Source of the DNA: a virus
Taxonomy: Duplodnaviria; Heunggongvirae; Uroviricota; Caudoviricetes
Virus record (IMG/VR): IMGVR_UViG_2526164598_000014
Length of the DNA stretch: 49,244 nt
Reading direction: 5' to 3' (one strand)
The notes under the pieces were generated by a model, which was not told where the DNA came from, ran no database searches, and saw only the letters and a list, made by a program, of their open reading frames with translations. The position numbers and the translations under genes were made by a program. Positions 1 through 34,584 of this stretch are shown piece after piece (position 1 is the stretch's first letter; each line of letters opens with the position of its first letter).

Positions 1-1284
1 TTACTTCTTCGCCTCTGCAACCACTTTACTACCCACGCCGCGGTTATTGTATTCCCACATGCGGTTGTAGTTAGTGTCATTCAGATTGCGCTGTATTTCG
101 TCGTTATCATCTACGCTGCCGGTATTACCCGCAAACGGACGATTAGAGATCACCGCATCGGCCCACGGTTTAGCCGTGTTAAAACCTTCGTTGATGGCGC
201 TATCACGGATCACCACCTGACCGTTGGTATTGGCATCAACATCCAGCGAGCGGCCCAGTTGCGCCACACCATCACCGAAAGCATTGAAACGGCTGTTTAC
301 GGCGAGGAAACCGTAGTAAATGTTGGACAGCGTAGCCGGTGCAAACACATACGCTTCTTGCTGAGTACGTGAGTTCACCACGCGGAATTCGGTGTTATCG
401 AACACCACTGCGCCGCGACCAGAAACGATATCCACATCCCCTTCAATGTAGCTGTTGGTCACCAGCGTACGCGGCTGACGGTTGGTTTCCAGACGGTTCT
501 GCACACCGCTGTTGGTGACAAAGAAGGTGTTCTGACGACCGAGAATGTTAACGTTGTTAATCTGCACCAGGTCACCATCAGTACGCAGTGCCACCGCCGG
601 ATGGTTACCTGCATCTACGCTATCGCCCAGCGTGTTTTCGATGGTCAGATTTTGCAGTTGCAGGCCATTGTTTTGTGACCAGAAGACCGCAGAGCAGAGA
701 ACACCGATACTGTCGCTGCGTTTGCTCTGGCAGCTATCGTACATATACCACGCTGGTTTACCTGGCATATATTTGCCGCGCGGGTTGACGTCGTGACGCC
801 AGTCGGCAGGGCTCATGCCACCATCAAGGGAAAGCCCAATCTTCACATCAATCGGTTTTTCACCTGTACCGTACAGAGTAATTCCACCCGGAGCGGCAGG
901 GACATATACCGTTCCCTGATACTCACCAGGCATCACGGCAATATACTGGCGCTTGTTGGTACGCTTGATAATTGCCGCATCTACCGCCGCCTGAATCGTG
1001 GTATGCGTTACACCTTGAGTGCCCGCCGGGCCGACAACAAAGTCAGGTTGCGCAGGCAGGGTAATCGGGGAAGGATTCCACGCTGCAGCACCTGGTGTCA
1101 GGGATGCAAAATAGTGTTGAGCATCGAAATTCTGCGCTTCTTTTGCCGACAGAATCGGGCGAGAAGAGGTACCAGGCGCGGTTTGATCAGAAGGACGTTG
1201 ATCGGGCGGGGTTGAGCTACAGGCGGTCAGCGTCACGCCAAAAGCCAATGCCAGCGCCAGACGGGAAACTGAAAATGTGTTCAC
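1..1284 (-). CDS. ybhC: YbhC-like outer-membrane lipoprotein (pectinesterase-fold acyl-CoA thioesterase), chromosomal gene flanking attB-lambda
   Basis: 427-aa ORF with lipoprotein signal (LTLTAC lipobox) matching E. coli YbhC as recalled; lies immediately left of the att core. Confidence 0.8.
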   Translation of the reverse strand: MNTFSVSRLALALAFGVTLTACSSTPPDQRPSDQTAPGTSSRPILSAKEAQNFDAQHYFASLTPGAAAWNPSPITLPAQPDFVVGPAGTQGVTHTTIQAAVDAAIIKRTNKRQYIAVMPGEYQGTVYVPAAPGGITLYGTGEKPIDVKIGLSLDGGMSPADWRHDVNPRGKYMPGKPAWYMYDSCQSKRSDSIGVLCSAVFWSQNNGLQLQNLTIENTLGDSVDAGNHPAVALRTDGDLVQINNVNILGRQNTFFVTNSGVQNRLETNRQPRTLVTNSYIEGDVDIVSGRGAVVFDNTEFRVVNSRTQQEAYVFAPATLSNIYYGFLAVNSRFNAFGDGVAQLGRSLDVDANTNGQVVIRDSAINEGFNTAKPWADAVISNRPFAGNTGSVDDNDEIQRNLNDTNYNRMWEYNNRGVGSKVVAEAKK

Positions 1285-1330: not shown

Positions 1331-1430
1331 GCTTTTTTATACTAAGTTGGCATTATAAAAAAGCATTGCTTATCAATTTGTTGCAACGAACAGGTCACTA
1401 TCAGTCAAAATAAAATCATTATTTGATTTC
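1331..1430. other. attL: attL: 15-bp lambda att core (1331-1345) plus phage P' arm
   Basis: Exact GCTTTTTTATACTAA core followed by recognisable lambda P' arm sequence (CATTATAAAAAAGCATTGCTTATCAATTTGTTGCAACGAACAGGTCACTATCAGTCAAAATAAAATCATTATTTGATTTC). Confidence 0.9.
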
Positions 1431-2724: not shown

Positions 2725-2892
2725 TCAGGCGGCTTGGTGTTCTTTCAGTTCTTCAATTCGAATATTGGTTATGTCTGCATGTGCTATCTGCGCCCATATC
2801 ATCCAGTGGTCATAGCAGTCATTGATGTTCTCTGCTTCGATAACTCTGTTGAATGGTTCTCCATTCCATTCACCTGTGACTCGGAAGTGCAT
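2725..2892 (-). CDS. Small hypothetical protein (55 aa, MHFRVTGEWNGEPFNRVIEAENINDCYDHWMIWAQIAHADITNIRIEELKEHQAA)
   Basis: ATG-initiated ORF below the 60-aa cutoff of the ORF track, co-oriented with xis in the leftward operon; hand-translated from the reverse strand. Confidence 0.3.
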   Translation of the reverse strand: MHFRVTGEWNGEPFNRVIEAENINDCYDHWMIWAQIAHADITNIRIEELKEHQAA

Positions 2893-2974
2893 TTATCATC
2901 TCCATAAAACAAAACTCGCCGTAGCGAGTTCAGATATAATTTCCACCAAAGGCAGTAGTTGCTGATGCTAAGAA

Positions 2975-3403
2975 TTATTCAATATCTATTCCTGTAATAT
3001 CTTTTATCTTTTTCCTTGCAAAGCCTTTTGCTAGTGATTTTGAAACACTTATTAGTGTACTAATTCCCTCATCCTTAAAGTTTGTTTTTATAGTTTGCCA
3101 GACCTCCTTTTGACGCAAGTCAGCAATAAAATCATGCCCTCTTGCTGTCAACCTCAGTGGTACTTCGATCCAACTATATCCAACACCTTCCCCTAACTCG
3201 TTGGACATTATATGACCGAACCCAGGTTTTCCATCAACCCTGACTATTAATTCGTAGTCGCATAATAATCGCATATGGAAAATAAAATTTTGGTCATATC
3301 TATTAAAGCCATTATCCTCTAGTTCACTAAGCATCGTGTCAGGGCCATGAGTTTTTTCGAATGCGATAAGTAGATCTTTTAGATATTGCTGGTCTAATTT
3401 CAT
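2975..3403 (-). CDS. Hypothetical protein, 142 aa, AT-rich cargo gene
   Basis: ATG-initiated ORF (cat at 3401-3403) in AT-rich segment between xis and the ea/red region; no recognisable motif. Confidence 0.55.
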   Translation of the reverse strand: MKLDQQYLKDLLIAFEKTHGPDTMLSELEDNGFNRYDQNFIFHMRLLCDYELIVRVDGKPGFGHIMSNELGEGVGYSWIEVPLRLTARGHDFIADLRQKEVWQTIKTNFKDEGISTLISVSKSLAKGFARKKIKDITGIDIE

Positions 3404-3431
3404 TGCCGCCTCCGTGACATGTCACAGAGAT

Positions 3432-3770
3432 TTATATCATTAATTTTGTTTCGTGCCAGCCTTTGGTCACCCAGCATTGTGAGTCACCATTACACGGGCA
3501 TGAATTAACAGGAACTCTCTCGCCGCACTTACCGCAACGTTTTCTGCTGATCGATTTTATACGCCAGCGCACACGTGCATCATCCTGGCGGCTCAGTAAC
3601 GCGATGTACTCACCAAACTCGTAAGGCGCATGCCTGAAGCGGCGCGTGGCTCAGTTACGATCCAGCATTTCAATTTCCTGAGCATCAAGTACAAGCTCCA
3701 GCTTACGCATACCGGATGATGCTTGCTTGGCTCTCTGATCGACTTTGCGCTCTGCTGATGATTTAGCCAT
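3432..3770 (-). pseudogene. Zinc-ribbon-like ORF interrupted by an in-frame TGA (codon 40 of 112)
   Basis: ATG at 3768-3770, 39 codons, in-frame TGA at 3651-3653, then 72 further codons in the same frame ending TAA 3432-3434; C-terminal part has CGKCG...CPCN...C cysteine pattern. Confidence 0.4.
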
Positions 3771-3966
3771 TCTGCTTTTCCTGCATTAGGAGAAAGACAA
3801 TCATGGCGGCGCGGATACTTCCGGTATCTTTTTACTCGATATTACCCTTCAATGGCACATACAAGAAGAGAGCCATCAACAGGAGTGAGTGAGGAATCGA
3901 CAACCAGCAACGCTTAATTATCTATAGTGTCGTATTTGCTTCATAAAATATGGCGAATAACACAAA

Positions 3967-3996
3967 GCCCGCAGCAGCTCATTGTGCGGGCTTTTC
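3967..3996. terminator. Hairpin GCCCGCA-N11-TGCGGGC followed by TTTTCTT; putative intrinsic terminator
   Basis: Stem-loop 3967-3991 plus T-run read directly from sequence; lies downstream of the 204-aa gene. Confidence 0.4.
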
Positions 3997-4063
3997 TTAT
4001 ACATACTTCCTAGAGATAATTCTATGGAGGCATTAAATTAATACTGTCATTGGTAATATCATA

Positions 4064-4678
4064 TTATCTAAAAGTCTTTCCACTTTTAACGTCTAGGTAT
4101 ATTCTGTTCGACAACGTCATTCCTCCGCAATATGTGAAATAGATGTTTTTCCCCTTATTGCTTGATGCCATCCACCCTCCGATTTCCTTAAAGTCGCTTT
4201 CCGTGCAGACCCCTTCGTTTATTAACTTCCTAGCTGCCGAAGAAAACTCTTTTTTGTATATACGGTAGTCATCAGATCCTTTGATTAAAGTATCATCTCC
4301 GCTCGCATTTTCAGCAGGATCTGATGGCCTTTCACTGCTAAGATCACTAAGTTTAACCCATTCTGAAAACTTGCCATTGACGATTCCGTTTTTTCTTGTG
4401 CAGGATTTATTACCTTCTTTAATATATTCGCTTTCCCCTCCCACACATGAGGCTGAATATGGCTCAGTTATACGAACCCATTCACCTTTTTTTTCTAGAA
4501 AATCTACGCCTTCCCTGAAAAATAGTTTCCCAGCCACTCCGCATTTACTTGAAGGGCAGGTATGTCTTTCCGTTCGATCAACAACAACCCAAAGTCTTGA
4601 TTCATTTTTTGCCATTGCCGATGGTATTTGAGATGAGACAATTAACGTAAGCCCTAAAATTAGTATTGATTTTTTCAT
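4064..4678 (-). CDS. Secreted hypothetical protein, 204 aa, Sec signal peptide, multiple Cys
   Basis: N-terminus MKKSILILGLTLIVSSQIPSAMA is a typical signal peptide; mature part has 8 cysteines; AT-rich context. Confidence 0.6.
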   Translation of the reverse strand: MKKSILILGLTLIVSSQIPSAMAKNESRLWVVVDRTERHTCPSSKCGVAGKLFFREGVDFLEKKGEWVRITEPYSASCVGGESEYIKEGNKSCTRKNGIVNGKFSEWVKLSDLSSERPSDPAENASGDDTLIKGSDDYRIYKKEFSSAARKLINEGVCTESDFKEIGGWMASSNKGKNIYFTYCGGMTLSNRIYLDVKSGKTFR

Positions 4679-4976
4679 TGTAATTTCCTTTTACTTTTTA
4701 CAAAGCGTTTAATCATGGCTGATTATCTTTAAGCGTAGTAACAGCCTTGTGCGAAACATGTTACCAAATCGCCATTTCAGTGTATCCGCAGTTAGGCTGC
4801 CACTTCAAGGATTCCTAATTACATGGTACGTAAGCGTAAAATCCCGTTGGTTGTCGGGTAATAACTCTGATCAAATCTCCCTTGTCTTTTGCTCTTACGT
4901 ATGCAGCTCTTGTGTATTCAACCCAGGCCTCCAGTTCAGCAATACGCTTACTTCCATCCGAGATAACACCTTCTAC

Positions 4977-5228
4977 TCACGCTGCTCGTTGAGTTTTGAT
5001 TTTTGCTGTCTCCAGCTCAACACGCAGTTTCCTCACCGTTAGCGCAATATCCTCGTTCTCCTGGTCGCGGCGTTTGATGTACTGCTGGTTTCTTTCCCGT
5101 TCATCCAGCAGTGTCAGCACAATCGATGGTGTTACCAGCTCATGGAAAAGGTCCGCGTCAAATCCCCAGTTGTCATGCATTGCCTGCTCTGCCGCTTCAC
5201 GCAGTGCCTGAGAGTGAATTACGCTCAC
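4977..5228 (-). CDS. Hypothetical early-left (ea region) protein, 83 aa
   Basis: ORF in leftward pL operon, 4-nt overlap with upstream TraR-like gene. Confidence 0.55.
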   Translation of the reverse strand: MSVIHSQALREAAEQAMHDNWGFDADLFHELVTPSIVLTLLDERERNQQYIKRRDQENEDIALTVRKLRVELETAKIKTQRAA

Positions 5229-5446
5229 TTCGAACCTCTCTGTTTACTGATAAGTTCCAGATCCTCCTGGCAACTTGCACAAGTCCGACAACCCTGAACG
5301 GCCAGGCGTCTTCGTTCATCTATCGGATCGCCACACTCACAACAATGAGTGGCAGATATAGCCTGGTGGTTCAGGCGGCGCATTTTTATTGCTGTGTTGC
5401 GCTGTAATTCTTCAATTTCTGATGCTGAATCAATGATGTCTGCCAT
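5225..5446 (-). CDS. TraR/DksA-family C4 zinc-finger protein, 73 aa
   Basis: CxxC-N17-CxxC pattern (CCECGDPIDERRRLAVQGCRTCASC) typical of the phage TraR/DksA family. Confidence 0.7.
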   Translation of the reverse strand: MADIIDSASEIEELQRNTAIKMRRLNHQAISATHCCECGDPIDERRRLAVQGCRTCASCQEDLELISKQRGSK

Positions 5447-5544
5447 CTTTCATTAATCCCTGAATTGTTGGTTAATACGCTTGAGGGTGAATGCGAATAA
5501 TAAAAAAGGAGCCTGTAGCTCCCTGATGATTTTGCTTTTCATGT

Positions 5545-5760
5545 TCACCGTTCCTTAAAAACGCCGTTTAACATGCCGATTGCTAGGCTTAAATGAGTCG
5601 GTGTGAATCCCATCAGCGTTACCGTTTCGCGGTGCTTCTTCAGTACGCTACGGCAAATGTCATCGACGTTTTTATCCGGAAACTGCTGTCTGGCTTTTTT
5701 GATTTCAGAATTAGCCTGACGGGCAATGCTGCGAAGGGCGTTTTCCTGCTGAGGTGTCAC
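5545..5760 (-). CDS. Hypothetical protein, about 71 aa from GTG start (ORF track gives 5545-5826)
   Basis: GTG at 5758-5760 overlaps the TGA of the upstream 27-codon ORF (GTGA); the longer 93-aa reading from 5826 overlaps that ORF out of frame. Confidence 0.4.
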   Translation of the reverse strand: MTPQQENALRSIARQANSEIKKARQQFPDKNVDDICRSVLKKHRETVTLMGFTPTHLSLAIGMLNGVFKER

Positions 5761-5840
5761 TGAACAAGCCCCATGTCGGCAAGCATAAGCACACAGAATA
5801 TGAAGCCCGCTGCCAGAAAAATGCATTCAGTGGTTGTCAT
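5757..5840 (-). CDS. Small hydrophobic peptide, 27 aa (MTTTECIFLAAGFIFCVLMLADMGLVQ)
   Basis: ATG at 5838-5840 overlaps stop of upstream 63-aa gene (ATGA), stop overlaps GTG of downstream ORF; single predicted TM helix. Confidence 0.3.
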   Translation of the reverse strand: MTTTECIFLAAGFIFCVLMLADMGLVQ

Positions 5841-6028
5841 ACCTGGTCTCTCTCATCTGCTTCTGCTTTCGCCACCATCATTTCCAGTTTTTGTGAAAGG
5901 GATGTGGCTAACGTATGAAATTCTTCGTCTGTTTCTACTGGTATTGGCACAAACCTGATTCCAATTTGAGCAAGGCTATGTGCCATCTCGATACTCGTTC
6001 TTAACTCAACAGGAGATGCTTTGTGCAT
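5837..6028 (-). CDS. Small early-left protein, 63 aa (lambda orf63-like by position)
   Basis: ORF directly downstream of exo side in pL operon; assignment by position and size only. Confidence 0.5.
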   Translation of the reverse strand: MHKASPVELRTSIEMAHSLAQIGIRFVPIPVETDEEFHTLATSLSQKLEMMVAKAEADERDQV

Positions 6029-6189
6029 ACAGCCCCTCGTTTATTATTTATCTCCTCAGCCAGCCGCTGTGCTTTCAGTGGATTTCGGATAACAGAAAGG
6101 CCGGGAAATACCCAGCCTCGCTTTGTAACGGAGTAGACGAAAGTGATTGCGCCTACCCGGATATTATCGTGAGGATGCGTCATCGCCAT
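6001..6189 (-). CDS. Small early-left protein, 62 aa (lambda orf60a-like by position)
   Basis: ORF immediately downstream of exo, overlapping its stop; assignment by position and size only. Confidence 0.5.
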
Positions 6190-6860
6190 TGCTCCCCAAA
6201 TACAAAACCAATTTCAGCCAGTGCCTCGTCCATTTTTTCGATGAACTCCGGCACCATCTCGTCAAAACTCGCCATGTACTTTTCATCCCGCTCAACCACG
6301 ACATAATGCAGTCCTTCACGCTTCATACGCGGGTCATAGTTGGCAAAGTACCAGGCATCTTTACGTGTCACCCACATGCTGTACTGCACCTGGGCCATGT
6401 AAGCCGACTTTATGGCCTCGAAACCACCGAGCCGGAACTTCATGAAATCCCGGGAGGTAAACGGGCATTTCAGCTCAAGGCCATTGCCGTCACTGCATAA
6501 ACCATCGGGAGAGCAGGCGGTGCGCATACTTTCGTCGCGATAGATGATCGGGGATTCAGTAACATTCACGCCGGAAGTGAATTCAAACAGGGTTCTGGCG
6601 TCGTTCTCGTACTGTTTTCCCCAGGCCAGCGCCTTAGCATTAACTTCCGGAGCCACACCGGTGCAAACCTCAGCCAGCAGGGTGTGGAAGTAGGACATTT
6701 TCATGTCAGGCCACTTCTTTCCTGAGCGGGGCTTTGCTATCACGTTGTGAACTTCTGAAGCGGTGATGACGCCGAGCCGTAATTTGTGCCATGCATCATC
6801 CCCCTGTTCGACAGCTCTCACGTCGATCCCGGTACGCTGCAGGATAATGTCCGGTGTCAT
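6180..6860 (-). CDS. exo: Lambda exonuclease (Red alpha)
   Basis: 226-aa ORF matching lambda Exo as recalled. Confidence 0.96.
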
Positions 6861-7642
6861 GCTGCCACCTTCTGCTCAGTGGCTTTCTGTTTCAGGAATC
6901 CGAGAGCTTTCACTGCTTCGACCTGTGTCAGTTCTGACGATGCGCGAATGTCGCGGCGAAATATCTGGGAACAGAGCGGCAATAAGTCGTCATCCCATGT
7001 TTTATCCAGGGCAATCAGCAGAGTGTTAATCTCCTGCATGGTTTCATCGTTAACCGGAGTGATGTCGCGTTCCGGCTGACGTTCTGCAGTGTATGCGGTA
7101 TTTTCGACAATGCGCTCGGCTTCATCCTTGTCATAGATACCAGCAAATCCGAAGGCCAGACGGGCACACTGAATCATGGCTTTATGACGTAACATCCGTT
7201 TGGGATGCGACTGCCACGGCCCCGTGATTTCTCTGCCTTCGCGGGTTTTGAATGGTTCGCGGCGGCATTCATCCATCCACTCGGTAACGCAGATCGGATG
7301 ATTACGGTCCTTGCGGTAAATCCGGCATGTGCAGGATTCATTGTCCTGCTCAAAGTCCATGCCATCAAACTGCTGGTTTTCATTGATGATACGGGACCAG
7401 CCATCAACGCCCACCACCGGAACGATGCCGTTCTGCTTGTCAGGGAAGGCGTAAATTTCTTTCGTCCACGGATTAAGGCCGTACTGGTTGGCGACGATCA
7501 ACAATGCGATGAACTGCGCATCGCTGGCATCGCCTTTAAATGCCGTCTGGCGAAGAGTGGTGATCAGTTCCTGTGGGTCGACAGAATCCATGCCGACACG
7601 TTCAGCCAGCTTCCCAGCCAGCGTTGCGAGTGCTGTACTCAT
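6857..7642 (-). CDS. bet: Lambda Bet single-strand annealing protein (Red beta)
   Basis: 261-aa ORF matching lambda Bet as recalled ([48 protein letters not shown]...). Confidence 0.96.
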
Positions 7643-7647
7643 CCGTT

Positions 7648-8064
7648 TTATACCTCTGAATCAATATCAACCTGATGGTGAGCAATGGTTTCAACCATGT
7701 ACCGGATGTGTTCTGCCATGCGCTCCTGAAACTCAACATCGTCATCAAACGCACGGGTAATGGCTTTTTTGCTGGCCCCGTGGCGTTGCAAATGATCGAT
7801 GCATAGCGATTCAAACAGGTGCTGGGGCAGGCCTTTTTCCATGTCGTCTGCCAGTTCTGCCTCTTTCTCTTCACGGGCGATCTGCTGGTAGTGACGCGCC
7901 CAGCTCTGAGCCTCAAGACGATCCTGAATGTAATAAGCGTTCATGGCTGAACTCCTGAAATAGCTGTGAAAATATCGCCCGCGAAATGCCAGGCTGATTA
8001 GGAAAACAGGAAAGGGGGTTAGTGAATGCTTTTGCTTGATCTCAGTTTCAGCATTAATATCCAT
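7648..8064 (-). CDS. gam: Lambda Gam RecBCD inhibitor
   Basis: 138-aa ORF matching lambda Gam as recalled. Confidence 0.95.
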
Positions 8065-8162
8065 TTTTTATAAGCGTCGACGGCTTCACGAAACATCTTT
8101 TCATCGCCAATAAAAGTGGCGATAGTGAATTTAGTCTGGATAGCCATAAGTGTTTGATCCAT
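8019..8162 (-). CDS. kil: Lambda Kil host division inhibitor (47 aa)
   Basis: Internal ATG at 8160-8162 gives [47 protein letters not shown] matching lambda Kil. Confidence 0.85.
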
Positions 8163-8295
8163 TCTTTGGGACTCCTGGCTGATTAAGTATGTCGATAAGG
8201 CGTTTCCATCCGTCACGTAATTTACGGGTGATTCGTTCAAGTAAAGATTCGGAAGGGCAGCCAGCAACAGGCCACCCTGCAATGGCATATTGCAT
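8131..8295 (-). CDS. cIII: Lambda CIII (FtsH inhibitor, 54 aa)
   Basis: Hand translation from ATG 8293-8295: [54 protein letters not shown]; below ORF-track size cutoff. Confidence 0.9.
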   Translation of the reverse strand: MQYAIAGWPVAGCPSESLLERITRKLRDGWKRLIDILNQPGVPKNGSNTYGYPD

Positions 8296-8367
8296 GGTGT
8301 GCTCCTTATTTATACATAACGAAAAACGCCTCGAGTGAAGCGTTATTGGTATGCGGTAACGCAGCGC

Positions 8368-8736
8368 TCAGGCGGCTTTGATAGTCATATCATCTGAATC
8401 AAATATTCCTGATGTATCGATATCGGTAATTCTTATTCCTTCGCTACCATCCATTGGAGGCCATCCTTCCTGACCATTTCCATCATTCCAGTCGAACTCA
8501 CACACAACACCATATGCATTTAAGTCGCTTGAAATTGCTATAAGCAGAGCATGTTGCGCCAGCATGATTAATACAGCATTTAATACAGAGCCGTGTTTAT
8601 TGAGTCGGTATTCAGAGTCTGACCAGAAATTATTAATCTGGTGAAGTTTTTCCTCTGTCATCACGTCATGGTCAATTTCAATTTCTATTGATGCTTTCCA
8701 GTCGTAATCAATGATGTATTTTTTGATGTTTGACAT
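8368..8736 (-). CDS. ea10: Lambda Ea10 (Ssb-like early protein)
   Basis: 122-aa ORF in lambda position between cIII and ral; matches lambda Ea10 as recalled. Confidence 0.85.
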   Translation of the reverse strand: MSNIKKYIIDYDWKASIEIEIDHDVMTEEKLHQINNFWSDSEYRLNKHGSVLNAVLIMLAQHALLIAISSDLNAYGVVCEFDWNDGNGQEGWPPMDGSEGIRITDIDTSGIFDSDDMTIKAA

Positions 8737-8918
8737 CTATTCATATCCTCATAGATAAAAAATCGCCCTCACATTGGAGGGCAAAGAAGATTTCCAATAA
8801 TCAGAACAAGTCGGCTCCTGTTTAGTTACGAGCGACATTGCTCCGTGTATTCACTCGTTGGAATGAATACACAGTGCAGTGTTTATTCTGTTATTTATGC
8901 CAAAAATAAAGGCCACTA

Positions 8919-9119
8919 TCAGGCAGCTTTGTTGTTCTGTTTACCAAGTTCTCTGGCAATCATTGCCGTCGTTCGTATTGCCCATTTATCGACATATTTC
9001 CCATCTTCCATTACAGGAAACATTTCTTCAGGCTTAACCATGCATTCCGATTGCAGCTTGCATCCATTGCATCGCTTGAATTGTCCACACCATTGATTTT
9101 TATCAATAGTCGTAGTCAT
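8919..9119 (-). CDS. ral: Lambda Ral restriction alleviation protein
   Basis: 66-aa ORF matching lambda Ral (MTTTIDKNQWCGQFKRCNGCKLQSECMVKPEEMF...). Confidence 0.95.
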   Translation of the reverse strand: MTTTIDKNQWCGQFKRCNGCKLQSECMVKPEEMFPVMEDGKYVDKWAIRTTAMIARELGKQNNKAA

Positions 9120-9264
9120 ACGGATAGTCCTGGTATTGTTCCATCACATCCTGAGCATGCTCTTCGAACTCTTTAGACTGGCCCCCTGAATCTCCAGACA
9201 ACCAATATCACTTAAATAAGTGATAGTCTTAATACTAGTTTTTAGACTAGTCATTGGAGAGCAG

Positions 9265-9630
9265 ATGATTGATGTCTTAGGACCGGAGAAACGCAGACGG
9301 CGTACTACACAGGAAAAGATCGCTATTGTTCAGCAGAGTTTTGAACCGGGAATGACGGTCTCCCTTGTTGCCCGGCAACACGGTGTGGCAGCCAGCCAGT
9401 TATTTCTCTGGCGCAAGCAATACCAGGAGGGAAGTCTTACTGCTGTGGCCGCAGGAGAGCAGGTCGTTCCTGCCTCTGAACTTGCTGCTGCCATGAAGCA
9501 GATTAAAGAACTCCAGCGCCTGCTCGGCAAAAAAACGATGGAAAATGAACTCCTTAAAGAAGCCGTTGAATACGGGCGTGCAAAAAAGTGGATAGCGCAC
9601 GCGCCCTTATTGCCCGGGGATGGGGAGTAA
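9265..9630 (+). CDS. insC: IS2 InsC (orfA, HTH transposase N-terminal protein)
   Basis: [41 protein letters not shown]... matches IS2 InsC as recalled. Confidence 0.9.
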
Positions 9631-10493
9631 GCTTAGTCAGCCGTTGTCTCCGGGTGTCGCGTGCGCAGTTGCACGTAATTCTCAGACGAACCGATGACTG
9701 GAAAGATGGTCGCCGCAGCCGTCACTCAGATGATACGGATGTGCTTCTCCGTATACACCATGTTATCGGAGAGCTGCCCACGTATGGTTATCGTCGGGTA
9801 TGGGCGCTGCTTCGCAGACAGGCCGAACTTGATGGTATGCCTGCGATCAATGCCAAACGTGTTTACCGGATCATGCGCCAGAATGCGCTGTTGCTTGAGC
9901 GAAAAACCGCTGTACCGCCATCGAAACGGGCACATACTGGCAAAGTGGCCGTGAAAGAAAGCAATCAACGATGGTGCTCTGACGGGTTCGAGTTCCGCTG
10001 TGATAACGGAGAAAAACTGCGAGTCACGTTCGCGCTGGACTGCTGTGACCGTGAGGCACTGCACTGGGCAGTCACTACGGGCGGCTTCGACAGTGAAACA
10101 GTACAGGACGTAATGCTGGGAGCGGTGGAACGCCGCTTCGGCAACGAGCTTCCGGCGTCTCCAGTAGAGTGGCTGACGGATAATGGTTCATGCTACCGGG
10201 CTAATGAAACACGGCAGTTTGCCCGGATGTTGGGGCTTGAACCGAAGAACACGGCGGTGCGGAGTCCGGAGAGTAACGGCATAGCAGAGAGCTTCGTGAA
10301 AACGATAAAGCGTGACTACATCAGTATCATGCCTAAACCAGACGGGTTAACGGCAGCAAAGAACCTTGCAGAGGCGTTCGAGCATTATAACGAATGGCAT
10401 CCGCATAGTGCACTGGGTTATCGCTCGCCACGGGAATATCTGCGGCAGCAGGCCAGTAATGGGTTAAGTGATAACAGGTGTCTGGAAATATAG
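9588..10493 (+). CDS. insD: IS2 InsD (orfB, DDE transposase catalytic part)
   Basis: 301-aa ORF matching IS2 InsD as recalled; overlaps insC in -1 frame as expected for the fusion transposase. Confidence 0.9.
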
Positions 10494-10668
10494 GGGCAAA
10501 TCCACTCTTCAAATTCTTCTTCCATATATCACCTTAAATAGTGGATTGCGGTAGTAAAGATTGTGCCTGTCTTTTAACCACATCAGGCTCGGTGGTTCTC
10601 GTGTACCCCTACAGCGAGAAATCGGATAAACTCTATTCACCCCTACAGAGAGCAAAAGAGAAACGCCG

Positions 10669-11250
10669 ATGAACAACTCATGGTGGCAGGAACTAATGCA
10701 TTTTTTCCTGCAAGGAATGACACTTAAACAGTTGATTCATATGCTAATCATCCTGATCATATTGATTATTGTTATGCCGGTAAGCGTAAAAGAATGGATA
10801 AACCTGCATAATCCAGAAATCCTTCCTTATTATTGGATGTATTACATCCTGTTGTTCTGCGTTAGCTATGTGCTTAACGGTGTTGTTAATTCCGCTTATC
10901 ACGCTGTGACTGAAAGAATTGAGGTATCCGCTGCTCAGAAGCGCAAATCTAAAGAAGAAAAATATGTGCAAGATTTGTTTGATTCGTTAACTCTTGGAGA
11001 AAGAGCGTATTTGGCATTCGCTGTAGCCGCGAATAACCAGCTAAAGACAGAAAAGGGAAGCCCTGAAGCAATCTCATTGCTCGAAAAAGGGCTTCTTATT
11101 CGGATACCTTCTGCTACTGGATATCCTGAAATCGACCGTTTTGTTATCCCGGAACGCTATAGAAATGAGTGCTACATTCGGTTTGCCGGGAAGGCAGACA
11201 GCCTTATGGATGAACTTATCGCTCAGGATAAGCATGGCAAAAACAAGTAA
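10669..11250 (+). CDS. sieB: SieB-like superinfection exclusion membrane protein, 193 aa
   Basis: Rightward gene embedded antisense in pL operon between ral and N as in lambda; two hydrophobic segments; AT-rich. Confidence 0.6.
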   Translation: MNNSWWQELMHFFLQGMTLKQLIHMLIILIILIIVMPVSVKEWINLHNPEILPYYWMYYILLFCVSYVLNGVVNSAYHAVTERIEVSAAQKRKSKEEKYVQDLFDSLTLGERAYLAFAVAANNQLKTEKGSPEAISLLEKGLLIRIPSATGYPEIDRFVIPERYRNECYIRFAGKADSLMDELIAQDKHGKNK

Positions 11251-11266
11251 TTAGCAAATGAATTTA

Positions 11267-11539
11267 TCATCTCGCCGTCAGTTGTTTTGATTTCCGGTAG
11301 CCTGCCGCGTAAAGAGCTACGTTCGGAAGACAAGTTGAACCTTCATATTTTCTGGTCAACGTTGTCAGAGTTATCACTTCTGCTCTCATTGCTGGTTTGC
11401 GCTTGCATTGCAAGACCACTCGTGAAGGGGTTGGCCTGTGTAGCTTGTCGGAGCTGATCGCCTCCTGACTTTGCAGATTTGCGCGACGAGCTCTACGGCG
11501 AGAAGCTGCGGTGCCTTTAAATTCTGTTTTTCTGGACAT
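11267..11539 (-). CDS. N: N-type transcription antiterminator, non-lambda allele, 90 aa from ATG 11537-11539
   Basis: Arginine-rich motif near N-terminus (TAASRRRARRANLQ), strong RBS GGGAGG 5 nt upstream, position right of pL/nutL; longer 114-aa ORF in track lacks RBS. Confidence 0.7.
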   Translation of the reverse strand: MSRKTEFKGTAASRRRARRANLQSQEAISSDKLHRPTPSRVVLQCKRKPAMRAEVITLTTLTRKYEGSTCLPNVALYAAGYRKSKQLTAR

Positions 11540-11564
11540 GGATTCCTCCCGAATAAACTTTGGC

Positions 11565-11612
11565 GATGCAATCTCGAAGCTCCTCCTGAGACGATTGCTT
11601 CGGCATTGCATC
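11565..11612 (-). promoter_or_regulatory. Long inverted repeat in N leader (GATGCAAT...ATTGCATC with inner GCTTCG/CGAAGC)
   Basis: Perfect 8-bp outer stem and inner stem read from sequence, 26 nt upstream of N start; analogous in position to the lambda N-leader structure. Confidence 0.4.
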
Positions 11613-11637
11613 CCACAGCTTATGTGGTTGGGTGATC

Positions 11638-11684
11638 TGGCTTTTCAGCCACGTAGTCGAGAGTCGACGTTGTTTAAAGAGCCT
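11638..11684 (-). promoter_or_regulatory. nutL: Putative nutL (boxA-like GGCTCTTTA and boxB hairpin TGGCT-GAAA-AGCCA)
   Basis: On the reverse strand, boxA-like element followed about 25 nt later by a 5-bp stem with GAAA-type loop. Confidence 0.45.
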
Positions 11685-11945
11685 GCCAGTCTGTTCCATT
11701 TGGCTTCCAGCGTCCTGCTGACGGTTAAATAGTACGATATGTACTTTACAAGATCAATACAATTTGTTGTAAGTTGGCGTGGTTTTTTATAACGCTTTGT
11801 ATTTAATAGTGTTGTTTTTTAGCGTGGATGTATTGCCTCGGCGATGTAAGGAGAGATCAGAATTGCGTGGTTTAGTGGGTTGCATCTATTTATTTTTCAA
11901 TAAATACAATTGGTTATGTGTTTTTAGGTGGGGCGATCGTGAGGC

Positions 11946-11977
11946 AAAGAAAACCCGGCGCTGAGGCCGGGTTTTTC
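11946..11977. terminator. Bidirectional intrinsic terminator closing the cI-proximal operon (tImm-like)
   Basis: Hairpin CCCGGC-GCTGAG-GCCGGG at 11954-11971 flanked by A-run and T-run; directly after stop of 258-aa gene. Confidence 0.65.
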
Positions 11978-12753
11978 TAGGCTACCAGAGACTCAATCCA
12001 AGAGTCTCTGGTATGGAATGGCAACACTCGTGCGGTATCATTAAATAGTAGTGATAGTTGCTGTAGCTCAGGTGTTAACCCATCGCTGTCAACTATTACA
12101 AATCTATTGTTTATGTCAGGAACGACCTGACTTAAGTCAACAATCTTCCCAACTGTTGAGTGGGCAGTATTCCATCCCTTACTGCTGGCAAGGCTTACCG
12201 TAAACCCGCGTTTTGGTGGTATTAGTCGAGACTCATTCCTTAGCGTTAACGGAACAGTAATGTTATGCCCACTAATACCTTTCACTTTTTCCTTTAAGGC
12301 TAGTCGCTTCCCAAGCCCTGCTGATTTTAAGTAACTGATTACACATTTTTCGAACTTATCGTCTTTGACCTCAGCATACCAATCAGCAGTTTGGGCGGAT
12401 GCAAGAATCCCACCACGAATAACATTTGCAGTTACCTGTCCAACGGACGACTCATCTGCCCACGCAGATATCTCTCCAGAATCATTTAATGAAATTCCTT
12501 GCGAAGCGAGTGATGACCTAATCAGATCAATTTTCTTTTTAGTCAGGTGGATGCCGCGTGATTCAATATTCATCAATGTATCGCAGTAGTCTGTAACCCT
12601 ATACTGACCACTCATCTCTTGAACGAATACACTTATCTGCTCACAATCATCGTAGTATGTGAAGGGACTAATAACGCGCAGCAACGTGTCGCTCATTGGG
12701 TGGCATTCAAACCCGAGCTTAGATATGACTGTTGAACACGTTACATTTCCCAT
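11977..12753 (-). CDS. Hypothetical protein, 258 aa, second gene of operon in the rexAB slot
   Basis: ATG at 12751-12753; overlaps upstream 180-aa gene by 13 nt; AT-rich; no motif I can recognise. Confidence 0.7.
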   Translation of the reverse strand: MGNVTCSTVISKLGFECHPMSDTLLRVISPFTYYDDCEQISVFVQEMSGQYRVTDYCDTLMNIESRGIHLTKKKIDLIRSSLASQGISLNDSGEISAWADESSVGQVTANVIRGGILASAQTADWYAEVKDDKFEKCVISYLKSAGLGKRLALKEKVKGISGHNITVPLTLRNESRLIPPKRGFTVSLASSKGWNTAHSTVGKIVDLSQVVPDINNRFVIVDSDGLTPELQQLSLLFNDTARVLPFHTRDSWIESLVA

Positions 12754-27723: not shown

Positions 27724-31404
<3,681 letters not shown>

Positions 31405-31424
<20 letters not shown>

Positions 31425-32724
31425 TCTCCCGCATATTGCCAGTATGGCCTTTAATGATCCGCTGATGCTTGAACCCGCCTATGCGCGGGTTTTCTTTTGT
31501 GCGCTTGCAGGCCAGCTTGGGATCAGCCGCCTGACGGATGCGGTGTCCGGCGACAGCCTGACTGCCCAGGAGGCACTCGCGACGCTGGCGTTATCCGGTG
31601 ATGATGACGGACCACGACAGGCCCGCAGTTATCAGGTCATGAACGGCATCGCCGTGCTGCCGGTGTCCGGCACGCTGGTCAGCCGGACGCGGGCGCTGCA
31701 GCCGTACTCGGGGATGACCGGTTACAACGGCATTATCGCCCGTCTGCAACAGGCTGCCAGCGATCCGATGGTGGACGGCATTCTGCTCGATATGGACACG
31801 CCCGGCGGGATGGTGGCGGGGGCATTTGACTGCGCTGACATCATCGCCCGTGTGCGTGACATAAAACCGGTATGGGCGCTTGCCAACGACATGAACTGCA
31901 GTGCAGGTCAGTTGCTTGCCAGTGCCGCCTCCCGGCGTCTGGTCACGCAGACCGCCCGGACAGGCTCCATCGGCGTCATGATGGCTCACAGTAATTACGG
32001 TGCTGCGCTGGAGAAACAGGGTGTGGAAATCACGCTGATTTACAGCGGCAGCCATAAGGTGGATGGCAACCCCTACAGCCATCTTCCGGATGACGTCCGG
32101 GAGACACTGCAGTCCCGGATGGACGCAACCCGCCAGATGTTTGCGCAGAAGGTGTCGGCATATACCGGCCTGTCCGTGCAGGCTGTGCTGGATACCGAGG
32201 CTGCAGTGTACAGCGGTCAGGAGGCCATTGATGCCGGACTGGCTGATGAACTTGTTAACAGCACCGATGCGATCACCGTCATGCGTGATGCACTGGATGC
32301 ACGTAAATCCCGTCTCTCAGGAGGGCGAATGACCAAAGAGACTCAATCAACAACTGTTTCAGCCACTGCTTCGCAGGCTGACGTTACTGACGTGGTGCCA
32401 GCGACGGAGGGCGAAAACGCCAGCGCGGCGCAGCCGGACGTGAACGCGCAGATCACCGCAGCGGTTGCGGCAGAAAACAGCCGCATTATGGGGATCCTCA
32501 ACTGTGAGGAGGCTCACGGACGCGAAGAACAGGCACGCGTGCTGGCAGAAACCCCCGGTATGACCGTGAAAACGGCCCGCCGCATTCTGGCCGCAGCACC
32601 ACAGAGTGCACAGGCGCGCAGTGACACTGCGCTGGATCGTCTGATGCAGGGGGCACCGGCACCGCTGGCTGCAGGTAACCCGGCATCTGATGCCGTTAAC
32701 GATTTGCTGAACACACCAGTGTAA
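31405..32724 (+). CDS. C: Capsid assembly protease C
   Basis: GTG at 31405 gives (M)TAELRNLPHIASMAFNDPLMLEPAYARVFF... as lambda gpC; overlaps B end. Confidence 0.9.
32329..32724 (+). CDS. nu3: Scaffold protein Nu3 (in-frame internal start within C)
   Basis: Internal ATG at 32329 gives MTKETQSTTVSATASQ... as lambda Nu3. Confidence 0.85.
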   Translation: MTKETQSTTVSATASQADVTDVVPATEGENASAAQPDVNAQITAAVAAENSRIMGILNCEEAHGREEQARVLAETPGMTVKTARRILAAAPQSAQARSDTALDRLMQGAPAPLAAGNPASDAVNDLLNTPV

Positions 32725-32733
32725 GGGATGTTT

Positions 32734-33066
32734 ATGACGAGCAAAGAAACCTTTACCCATTACCAGCCGCAGGGCAACAGTGACCCGGCTCATACCGCAA
32801 CCGCGCCCGGCGGATTGAGTGCGAAAGCGCCTGCAATGACCCCGCTGATGCTGGACACCTCCAGCCGTAAGCTGGTTGCGTGGGATGGCACCACCGACGG
32901 TGCTGCCGTTGGCATTCTTGCGGTTGCTGCTGACCAGACCAGCACCACGCTGACATTCTACAAGTCCGGCACGTTCCGTTATGAGGATGTGCTCTGGCCG
33001 GAGGCTGCCAGCGACGAGACGAAAAAACGGACCGCGTTTGCCGGAACGGCAATCAGCATCGTTTAA
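32734..33066 (+). CDS. D: Head decoration protein D
   Basis: [27 protein letters not shown]... as lambda gpD. Confidence 0.95.
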
Positions 33067-33083
33067 CTTTACCCTTCATCACT

Positions 33084-33108
33084 AAAGGCCGCCTGTGCGG
33101 CTTTTTTT
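33084..33108 (+). terminator. Hairpin GGCCGC-CTGT-GCGGC plus T7 run between D and E
   Basis: Stem-loop and T-run read directly; could act as attenuator or RNA stabiliser in the late operon. Confidence 0.35.
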
Positions 33109-33121
33109 ACGGGATTTTTTT

Positions 33122-34147
33122 ATGTCGATGTACACAACCGCCCAGCTGCTGGCGGCAAATGAGCAGAAATTTAAGTTTGATCCGCTGTTTCTGCGTCTCT
33201 TTTTCCGTGAGAGCTATCCCTTCACCACGGAGAAAGTCTATCTCTCACAAATTCCGGGACTGGTAAACATGGCGCTGTACGTTTCGCCGATTGTTTCCGG
33301 TGAGGTTATCCGTTCCCGTGGCGGCTCCACCTCTGAATTTACGCCGGGATATGTCAAGCCGAAGCATGAAGTGAATCCGCAGATGACCCTGCGTCGCCTG
33401 CCGGATGAAGATCCGCAGAATCTGGCGGACCCGGCTTACCGCCGCCGTCGCATCATCATGCAGAACATGCGTGACGAAGAGCTGGCCATTGCTCAGGTCG
33501 AAGAGATGCAGGCAGTTTCTGCCGTGCTCAAGGGCAAATACACCATGACCGGTGAAGCCTTCGATCCGGTTGAGGTGGATATGGGCCGCAGTGCGGCGAA
33601 CAACATCACGCAGTCCGGCGGCACGGAGTGGAGCAAGCGTGACAAGTCCACGTATGACCCGACCGACGATATCGAAGCCTACGCGCTGAACGCCAGCGGC
33701 GTGGTGAATATCATCGTGTTTGACCCGAAAGGCTGGGCGCTGTTCCGTTCCTTCAAAGCCGTCAGGGAGAAGCTGGATACCCGTCGCGGCTCTCATTCCG
33801 AACTGGAGACAGCGGTAAAAGACCTGGGCAAAGCGGTGTCTTATAAGGGAATGTATGGCGATGTGGCCATCGTCGTGTATTCCGGACAGTACGTGGAAAA
33901 CGGCGTCAAAAAGAACTTCCTGCCGGACAACACGATGGTGCTGGGTAACACTCATGCACGCGGTCTGCGCACCTATGGCTGTATTCAGGATGCAGATGCA
34001 TTGAGTGAGGGTATTAATGCGTCTCCCCGTTATCCGAAAAACTGGAAGACATCCGGCGATCCGGCGCGAGAGTTCACCATGATTCAGTCAGCACCGCTGA
34101 TGCTGCTGGCTGATCCTGATGAGTTCGTGTCCGTTCAACTGGCGTAA
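33122..34147 (+). CDS. E: Major capsid protein E
   Basis: MSMYTTAQLLAANEQKFKFDPLFLRLFFRESYPF... as lambda gpE. Confidence 0.96.
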   Translation: MSMYTTAQLLAANEQKFKFDPLFLRLFFRESYPFTTEKVYLSQIPGLVNMALYVSPIVSGEVIRSRGGSTSEFTPGYVKPKHEVNPQMTLRRLPDEDPQNLADPAYRRRRIIMQNMRDEELAIAQVEEMQAVSAVLKGKYTMTGEAFDPVEVDMGRSAANNITQSGGTEWSKRDKSTYDPTDDIEAYALNASGVVNIIVFDPKGWALFRSFKAVREKLDTRRGSHSELETAVKDLGKAVSYKGMYGDVAIVVYSGQYVENGVKKNFLPDNTMVLGNTHARGLRTYGCIQDADALSEGINASPRYPKNWKTSGDPAREFTMIQSAPLMLLADPDEFVSVQLA

Positions 34148-34188
34148 TCATGGCCCTTCGGGGCCATTTTCTCTCTGTGGAGGAGTCC

Positions 34189-34584
34189 ATGACGAAAGAT
34201 GAACTGATTGCCCGTCTCCGTTCGCTGGGTGAGCAACTGAACCGTGATGTCAGCCTGACGGGGACGAAAGAAGAACTGGCGCTCCGTGTGGCAGAGCTGG
34301 AAGAGGAGCTTGATGACACGGATGACGCAGCCGGTCAGGACACGTCTGTCAGCCCGGAAAATGTGCTGACCGTGCATGAAAATGAGGTGGTATCAGCGCA
34401 GCCGGATACCGTGACTGATACGGCTGAACTGGTCACGGTCGTGGCACTGGTGACGCTGCATACTGATGCACTTCACGCCACGCGGGATGAACCTGTGGCA
34501 TTTGTGCTGCCGGGAACGGCGTTTCGTGTCTCTGCCGGTATGGCAGCCGAAATGACAGAGCGCGGCCTGGCCAGAATGCAATAA
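34189..34584 (+). CDS. FI: DNA packaging protein FI
   Basis: ATG at 34189 after GGAGG; MTKDELIARLRSLGEQLNRDVSLTGTKEELALRVAEL... as lambda gpFI. Confidence 0.9.
   Translation: MTKDELIARLRSLGEQLNRDVSLTGTKEELALRVAELEEELDDTDDAAGQDTSVSPENVLTVHENEVVSAQPDTVTDTAELVTVVALVTLHTDALHATRDEPVAFVLPGTAFRVSAGMAAEMTERGLARMQ

Follow-up and report, generated by a model that had tools for sequence, protein, structure and literature searches.

An alternative, mosaic ea region in a lambda-family prophage and its predicted periplasmic protein

What does a lambda-family prophage carry where the ea8.5 and ea22 genes of lambda would stand, and does any of it appear to be under selection? The question is raised by a stretch of 49,244 nucleotides from a Caudoviricetes virus (IMG/VR record IMGVR_UViG_2526164598_000014; this whole stretch is called the window below), which starts with Escherichia coli ybhC (1–1284, minus strand), continues with the lambda att core and then enters a lambda-family prophage. 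Behind int and xis of this prophage, the ea slot is filled with DNA foreign to lambda, including the gene of a 204-residue protein with an apparent signal peptide. The explanation regarded here as fairly probable is that the ea-region cargo is a mosaic and that its one selected gene codes for a stand-alone protein of the periplasm, associated with the wall.

A substituted block in the ea slot

In a blastn comparison with lambda (J02459), positions 1331–2940 of the window correspond to lambda 27724–29333 and positions 4930–9173 to lambda 30094–34341, both at ~98% identity. The interval of 2941–4929 showed no DNA homology to lambda by blastn, and since the two lambda-homologous blocks flank this gap, 1,989 bp of the window stand for 760 bp of lambda. 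The original prediction, made from the letters of the sequence, was that unrelated, AT-rich DNA replaces the ea8.5/ea22 slot of the leftward operon. Indeed, the alignment gap lies in that slot, and the content of guanine plus cytosine (GC) is 0.41 for 2725–4678 versus 0.51 for the whole window. The predicted limits of 2725–4678, however, have to be moved to those of the gap, and a 55-residue open reading frame (ORF) counted among the cargo turned out to be lambda's own orf55, which lies inside the lambda-homologous segment 1331–2940. The ORFs listed at 2725–2892, 2975–3403, 3432–3572 and 4064–4678 are all present on the minus strand. ORFs of the plus strand that overlap the region (e.g., 4281–4631 and 4749–5042) are absent from the RefSeq annotation and were set aside as antisense artefacts. 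The features on which the argument depends are as follows.

2941–4929, minus strand: substituted block, replacing lambda 29334–30093 (ea8.5 and the 3′ part of ea22), as delimited by the blastn alignment gap
4064–4678, minus strand: gene of the 204-residue protein, with a predicted signal peptide in codons 1–23 (nt 4610–4678), followed by an SH3b domain, a linker and a C-terminal domain
Residues ~27–110 of the 204-residue protein: predicted SH3b domain with a Cys-stabilised insert; then an RPxDP linker and, at residues ~125–204, a predicted C-terminal alpha+beta domain
4679–4822, minus strand: upstream region that travels with the 204-residue gene, with a candidate promoter, TTGAAG-N18-TACACT, at 4779–4808
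3957–3995, minus strand: terminator-like hairpin and U-rich tract downstream of the 204-residue gene (AAAAGCCCGCA...TGCGGGCTTTGTGTT)

Sequence comparison indicates that the block represents an alternative form (allele) taken by the variable ea region in a lambda-family prophage, with no single inserted island, and that three modules, each from a different origin, make up a mosaic. The first would be a DUF2513 gene. The second would consist of a regulator gene of PHROG family 536, apparently killed by a TGT-to-TGA change, and of the relic of an S24/UmuD-like gene. The third is taken to be a ~760-bp cassette made up of the upstream region and the 204-residue gene, followed by the hairpin terminator. 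The three-part division is drawn because the middle module matches podophages of the TL-2011b and phiV10 type (~90%) on its own; likewise, the 204-residue cassette alone matches a P1-like phage-plasmid at 85% nucleotide identity. GC contents by module are 0.36 for the DUF2513 gene, 0.47 for the middle and 0.39 for the 204-residue gene.

The match to the P1-like plasmid is limited to 4062–4820, that is, from ~145 nt before the ATG to the stop codon. It begins just upstream of the candidate −35 element, so that the candidate promoter is kept in both the prophage and the P1-like copies, while the hairpin lies outside the common homology. This hairpin has a predicted RNA folding energy of −23.3 kcal/mol (z −2.8), as expected if the gene has a terminator of its own. 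A LexA box upstream of the gene was also considered and rejected: by eye, there is just CTG-N9-CTG. The P1-like partner, an 88-kb circular plasmid of E. fergusonii, has a C1 repressor of the P1/P7 type with a tyrosine recombinase next to it, as well as a theta (hot) homologue and a humD-like S24 gene.

Compared with the ea region of lambda, the block occupies the same slot on the same strand between flanks that are ~98% identical, and its right junction falls inside an Ea22-like gene. It differs in its cargo proteins, which are related neither to Ea8.5 nor to the C-terminal portion of Ea22, and in having drawn its content from three or more other sources. Other lambda relatives hold different small genes in the region between xis and exo, e.g., phage 2B8. 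The architecture is ordinary accessory cargo of a known kind for lambdoid ea regions and, because the ea region is a known dumping ground for accessory genes, teaches little by itself. Besides the 204-residue gene, the block is mundane: a common DUF2513 prophage gene, one pseudogene and the S24/UmuD-like relic. What is gained is a clean definition of one cargo gene, encoding a predicted exported SH3b protein with a further domain that has neither a Pfam model nor a structural relative.

The 204-residue protein and its family

The Sec signal peptide claimed for the 204-residue protein can be seen by inspection. Its N-terminus (MKKSILILGLTLIVSSQIPSAMA) comprises a basic n-region (MKK), a core of 12–13 hydrophobic residues (SILILGLTLIVSS) and the stretch QIPSAMA, with small residues at −3 and −1 (A-x-A) before the predicted cut in front of K, in keeping with a type I signal peptide. 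Besides inspection, this assignment takes account of the pattern across the family: of 151 full-length relatives, 139 (92%) carry a signal for export or anchoring, be it a signal peptide, a lipobox or a transmembrane segment, and most of the relatives without one look like truncated or mis-started calls. In addition, some members are fusions in which a transmembrane segment comes after cytoplasmic zinc ribbons, as one would expect of a protein located outside the cytoplasm. Eight cysteines had been counted; the protein has six (41, 46, 78, 93, 158 and 184). In the family these are present or absent as pairs (41/46, 78/93 and 158/184), and three such pairs also fit an extracytoplasmic site. As judged from sequence and structural model, the product is very probably exported, and the Sec-type signal peptide would be cleaved after AMA.

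An AlphaFold model built on 36 relatives has a predicted local distance difference test (pLDDT) score of 90.3, and low confidence or disorder is restricted to residues 1–23. In this model, residues ~27–110 adopt an SH3-like beta-barrel, an SH3b domain being the fold by which cell-wall hydrolases bind peptidoglycan. Searches of the BFVD viral library gave weak SH3b matches only, which agree with this picture. Unlike the wall-binding SH3b domains of lysostaphin, phage endolysins and NlpC/P60 proteins, the domain here is accompanied by no catalytic domain, has a sub-threshold Pfam score (see below), contains a 20-residue insert with two extra predicted disulfides, and belongs to the setting of a Gram-negative periplasm.

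The C-terminal domain, of 85 residues, is predicted as two helices packed on a three-stranded sheet, and is modelled with equal confidence when taken alone. It holds the most strongly conserved motifs of the family (SDD, GGW, YFTYCGG and NRIYLD). Searches gave neither a Pfam model nor a structural relative for it. PDB chain matches of the family and of the C-terminal domain are designed TIM barrels; they contain no single significant stretch and were discarded as repeat artefacts. Marinobacter, Rhizobium and other bacteria have the domain by itself, in lipoproteins or anchored periplasmic proteins of ~85 residues; elsewhere it is preceded by different N-terminal extensions of periplasmic type, by ankyrin repeats or by zinc-ribbon/transmembrane anchors. 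Because it is the most conserved part and occurs alone, it is taken as the core of the family, with targeting as the part played by the SH3b domain. No clue to function came from the fusions of longer relatives, whether with ankyrin repeats, with zinc ribbons plus transmembrane anchors or with coiled-coil extensions.

The family is large. In a 50%-clustered library it has 1,576 representatives with E below 1e-3, and in a 90%-clustered collection there are 82 close clusters, including those of Pseudomonas and Aeromonas at 62–69% identity. The protein itself is already catalogued (RefSeq WP_000748284.1; PHROGs phrog_8310), and literature searches on WP_000748284, and on SH3b, periplasmic or exclusion proteins, found nothing relevant. 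Its gene has evidently been maintained: the ratio of non-synonymous to synonymous substitution rates (dN/dS) is 0.09 against the copy in the isolated phage Chlobot (PP925838.1; 12 substitutions) and again 0.09 against the P1-like copy (87 substitutions, dS 0.69). These sequence comparisons indicate that the gene is real and under strong purifying selection, and it is the sole part of the block with clear evidence of selection.

The whole arrangement is not confined to the window. Counting genomes with at least 80% of the block, it is present in 131 of 5,426 complete E. coli genomes at 96–100% identity, always behind int-xis-orf55 of the lambda type, and Chlobot carries it at 97.7% identity. 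Among the bacterial strains, E. coli ATCC 8739 has a copy that is 99.9–100% identical. Had the 204-residue protein been one of the ordinary conserved ea proteins, this would have spoken against the original prediction; it is not such a protein, and just one of 50,697 GenBank phage records, that of Chlobot, encodes it. Block-bearing fragments of this prophage have also been taken up by large plasmids in Citrobacter, Klebsiella and Enterobacter; the one such plasmid examined is C. freundii pA18-1 (NZ_CP022274.1, IncA replicon). Its positions 4514–7704 are a prophage fragment extending from the DUF1317 gene through the DUF2513 gene, with the phrog_536 gene intact, and adjoin trkG, IS5, Tn5403 and an ars operon. 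Copies of the 204-residue protein with 98.5–99% identity are found on large Klebsiella and Enterobacter plasmids.

There are more distant cases. A 5,310-bp ColE1-type plasmid of Citrobacter braakii (NZ_CP115736.1) carries a 64%-identical homologue at 2914–3528 as its sole evident cargo, which implies that the gene works and is expressed alone. In Pseudomonas, a recurrent island of 5–6 kb (one copy at 6402–12411) has a homologue directly after a large tyrosine integrase; this SH3b homologue is followed by four or five proteins, of which one is regulator-like (phrog_129), and beyond that assignment no Pfam, PHROGs or PADLOC clue was obtained for the island proteins. In an Aeromonas prophage, the homologue has a moron-like position: an antiterminator-like gene precedes it by a few genes, and the holin comes after it. 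The Cys-rich subfamily that includes the 204-residue protein is thus repeatedly found on mobile DNA, and the more distant relatives are ordinary chromosomal genes. Neighbourhoods were analysed at 77 genome loci; among the 69 usable ones, from different species, no conserved partner gene was found apart from genus-level synteny in Vibrio. The gene, then, moves as a single-gene cassette among lambda-like and P1-like phages, small plasmids and genomic islands of several genera.

In this respect the cassette resembles the phage morons bor and lom of lambda, in that it is a single lower-GC gene for an envelope protein, present or absent among close relatives and provided with a hairpin terminator. 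It is absent from lambda, is common to the P1-like plasmid, and is well below the window in GC content (see above). The morons bor and lom are late-region genes whose expression in the lysogen is documented; the gene here differs from them in lying in the pL operon with a weak candidate promoter.

Possible roles at the cell wall

It is shown, or at least strongly indicated, that the cassette is a single gene for a disulfide-bonded periplasmic protein with a domain of the peptidoglycan-binding type. The protein would sit on the periplasmic peptidoglycan and present its C-terminal domain there; no partner gene would be needed for its action, and its expression would probably start at a promoter belonging to the cassette. 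As to the benefit, the leading but tentative guess is interference with an attack on the cell wall or with its crossing. The attacker might be a superinfecting phage in the act of degrading the wall, or a toxin from outside that degrades peptidoglycan. The idea is by analogy. T4 Spackle is a periplasmic inhibitor of the gp5 tail lysozyme, and Ivy, PliC/MliC and PliG are periplasmic lysozyme inhibitors; like the 204-residue protein, they are small, stand-alone, exported and disulfide-containing, and PliC/MliC come in soluble and lipoprotein forms, which also exist in the 204-residue family. Searches for similarity in sequence or fold to the lysozyme inhibitor families (Ivy, PliC/MliC, PliG and PliI) and to T4 Spackle were negative, and the protein belongs to none of them. 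If the protein did protect the wall from phages or toxins, a simple periplasmic mechanism would be added to the benefits that prophages confer on their hosts. A more specific proposal, that the C-terminal domain defines an undescribed family of periplasmic effectors or inhibitors, tethered by SH3b in the phage form and blocking a wall-directed step of a phage or toxin, is rather unlikely as it stands; if true, it would make the protein a single-gene mobile factor of envelope defence shared by lambda-like and P1-like phages, small plasmids and Pseudomonas islands.

Several observations weigh against a wall-bound, protective protein made in the lysogen. The Pfam model SH3_3 (PF08239) gives the 204-residue protein 16.1 bits (E 0.013), under the gathering score of 27; several relatives have a precomputed PF08239 match or reach 24–27 bits. 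Peptidoglycan binding is assumed from the modelled fold of the SH3b domain. The candidate promoter fits the consensus at 8 of 12 positions, and a stricter scan returned none on this strand; as the gene is oriented like the pL operon, its product may be made only after induction. None of four proteins matched the defence models of PADLOC-DB v2 at E up to 0.1. Finally, many relatives are single chromosomal genes in Vibrio, Rhodobacterales and related Alphaproteobacteria, without any mobile context, and this fits a housekeeping role in the envelope as well as a protective one.

The last point leads to a different explanation, namely, that the 204-residue protein is a general envelope protein, for example for organising or sensing peptidoglycan, which was picked up by mobile elements and adds to fitness non-specifically, with no part in exclusion or defence. 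The breadth of the family speaks for it, as do the chromosomal copies among housekeeping genes, e.g., next to pheST and in syntenic Vibrio loci, and the occurrence of the C-terminal domain as a small lipoprotein or behind other anchors. On the other hand, the Cys-rich subfamily is met on a lambda-type prophage, a P1-like phage-plasmid, an Aeromonas prophage, Pseudomonas islands and a ColE1-type plasmid, and identities of 62–69% across Escherichia, Pseudomonas and Aeromonas are typical of horizontally traded accessory traits. A general envelope role is a possible minority explanation, about as tenable as interference with wall attack. Or the gene may serve early lytic growth: it would be transcribed from pL with N antitermination, would not be made in the lysogen, and its product would target the infected cell's wall, e.g., in protection from superinfection or lysis from without, or in preparing the wall for lysis. 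Strand and position are those of lambda pL-operon genes between exo and xis, a strong sigma-70 promoter was not found on this strand, and Chlobot, an isolated phage, has the arrangement. The terminator-like hairpins of the operon would also be no obstacle, as N antitermination reads through such structures. Yet the cassette and its upstream 145 nt are kept in the P1-like plasmid, outside any lambda operon; a homologue is the only cargo of a small plasmid; and prophage remnants that are heavily deleted and no longer capable of lytic growth still have an intact ORF, as do plasmid-captured fragments. An early lytic function is accordingly judged improbable.

It could still be asked whether the whole block is decaying, functionless junk that hitch-hikes with int-xis. 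Decay is plain in the nonsense-mutated regulator gene, the S24 relic and the frameshifted Ea22-like gene; the DUF2513 gene has dN/dS of 0.7–0.8 in two of three close comparisons, each with only ~11 substitutions, and IS1 or IS4 is inserted in the region in several genomes. For the three pseudogenes around the 204-residue gene this description is true. For the gene itself it is contradicted by the selection data, above all those over the 87 substitutions from the P1-like copy, and by membership of a conserved family with invariant motifs and a confidently predicted fold, so that as an account of the whole block it is highly improbable. Mosaic cargo with one selected gene for a periplasmic, wall-associated protein is the explanation kept here.

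Other modules, junction and backbone

The remaining features of the block and its left and right flanks are given below.

1331–1345, plus strand: lambda att core (attL), adjoining ybhC at the left prophage end; exact match to GCTTTTTTATACTAA, at which the lambda homology begins
1419–2489 (int) and 2467–2685 (xis), minus strand: lambda int and xis, backbone, ~98% identical to lambda 27812–29078
2725–2892, minus strand: orf55 (55 residues), lambda's own (lambda 29118–29285), phrog_676 at E 2e-39, backbone
2975–3403, minus strand: DUF2513 gene (142 residues), Pfam PF10711, a common prophage gene of Enterobacterales
3432–3770, minus strand: phrog_536 regulator-like pseudogene with a Cys-rich C-terminal end; TGA at 3651–3653 (codon 40)
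3808–3910, minus strand: relic of an S24/UmuD-like peptidase gene, an internal part of ~100 nt, non-functional; RefSeq "DNA repair protein, incomplete"
4815–5228, minus strand: Ead/Ea22-like pseudogene, whose 5′ part is lambda ea22 and whose C-terminal tail is different; RefSeq "frameshifted; incomplete"

The statement that no protein of the region is recognisable stands for neither the 142-residue protein nor the interrupted ORF, both of which belong by score to described families. The 142-residue protein matches DUF2513 (PF10711) at 42.9 bits against a gathering score of 29.6 (E 7e-11), over model positions 1–100 of 100, and phrog_585 at E 2e-34. It has 113 relatives at 46–99% identity in Citrobacter, Serratia, Yersinia, Pantoea and Cronobacter; no PDB relative was found by sequence or profile, and a literature search on DUF2513 returned nothing relevant.

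The interrupted ORF was correctly noticed: the 46-residue ORF at 3432–3572 is the tail of a 112-codon gene with one in-frame TGA. With this stop read as Cys, the product matches PHROG 536, annotated as "transcriptional regulator", at E 7e-49. The copy here differs from that family in being a pseudogene, and to our knowledge neither DUF2513 nor PHROG 536 has a tested function. Codon 40 is TGT (Cys) in Chlobot and in the plasmid copies, and RefSeq flags an "internal stop". Among 120 IMG/VR contigs with this gene segment, 102 have TGT and 18 TGA, and 17 of the 18 also show the 204-residue gene, the DUF2513 gene or both in the locus stretch. The TGA occurs solely within the lineage of the island, where it is shared by two alleles differing at nine other positions. 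The pattern suggests a nonsense mutation of some age that is spreading within a single lineage of the prophage, and no recoding. One of the TGA alleles, moreover, has a Cys-to-Tyr change in the Cys cluster, which also speaks against recoding, and the copy is a pseudogene. Selenocysteine insertion or read-through at the TGA was examined and rejected, as the downstream fold is no better than that of shuffled sequences (z +0.24) and has no stability like that of a selenocysteine insertion sequence (SECIS).

In the Chlobot record (4734–5212), the intact 112-codon phrog_536 gene is annotated merely as a 46-residue "transcriptional regulator", and an overlapping out-of-frame "UmuD-like protein" of 105 residues is annotated as well. 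This labelling looks like an annotation error. The S24 relic has 73.5% nucleotide identity to the intact S24 gene of the P1-like plasmid, and in our reading the Chlobot translation of the relic region resembles the middle of UmuD.

At the right junction, the Ead/Ea22-like pseudogene matches Pfam Ead_Ea22 (E 9e-20), with the match restricted to the flanking part, 4977–5228, and its first 78 codons are 92% identical to residues 1–78 of lambda Ea22. A DNA alignment shows one additional A and, 30 nt later, a loss of 4 bp, so that the net change of −3 restores the frame; the intervening stop at 4977–4979 is created by these two indels. Homology to lambda ends near 4929, and an unrelated tail (...YVPCN*) runs to the TAG at 4815–4817. 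Since the junction lies inside a gene of the Ea22 family, the sequence suggests that two lambdoid phages recombined within their related ea22 genes.

The backbone on both sides is of the expected kind. Integrase and excisionase are annotated by RefSeq in identical copies, and orf55 is found in lambda, HK630, DE3 and others. Two terminator-like hairpins stand on either side of orf55, at 2912–2931 and 2716–2735 on the minus strand, both in lambda-homologous DNA. Farther along, the only Rfam match in the window is Lambda_thermo, the cIII thermoregulator element, at 8250–8308 on the minus strand (88.5 bits), an expected lambda feature. The segments 9174–10503 and 10649–11850, corresponding to ral-N-immunity, are without lambda homology, and the immunity or early-regulation module of this prophage appears to differ from that of lambda.

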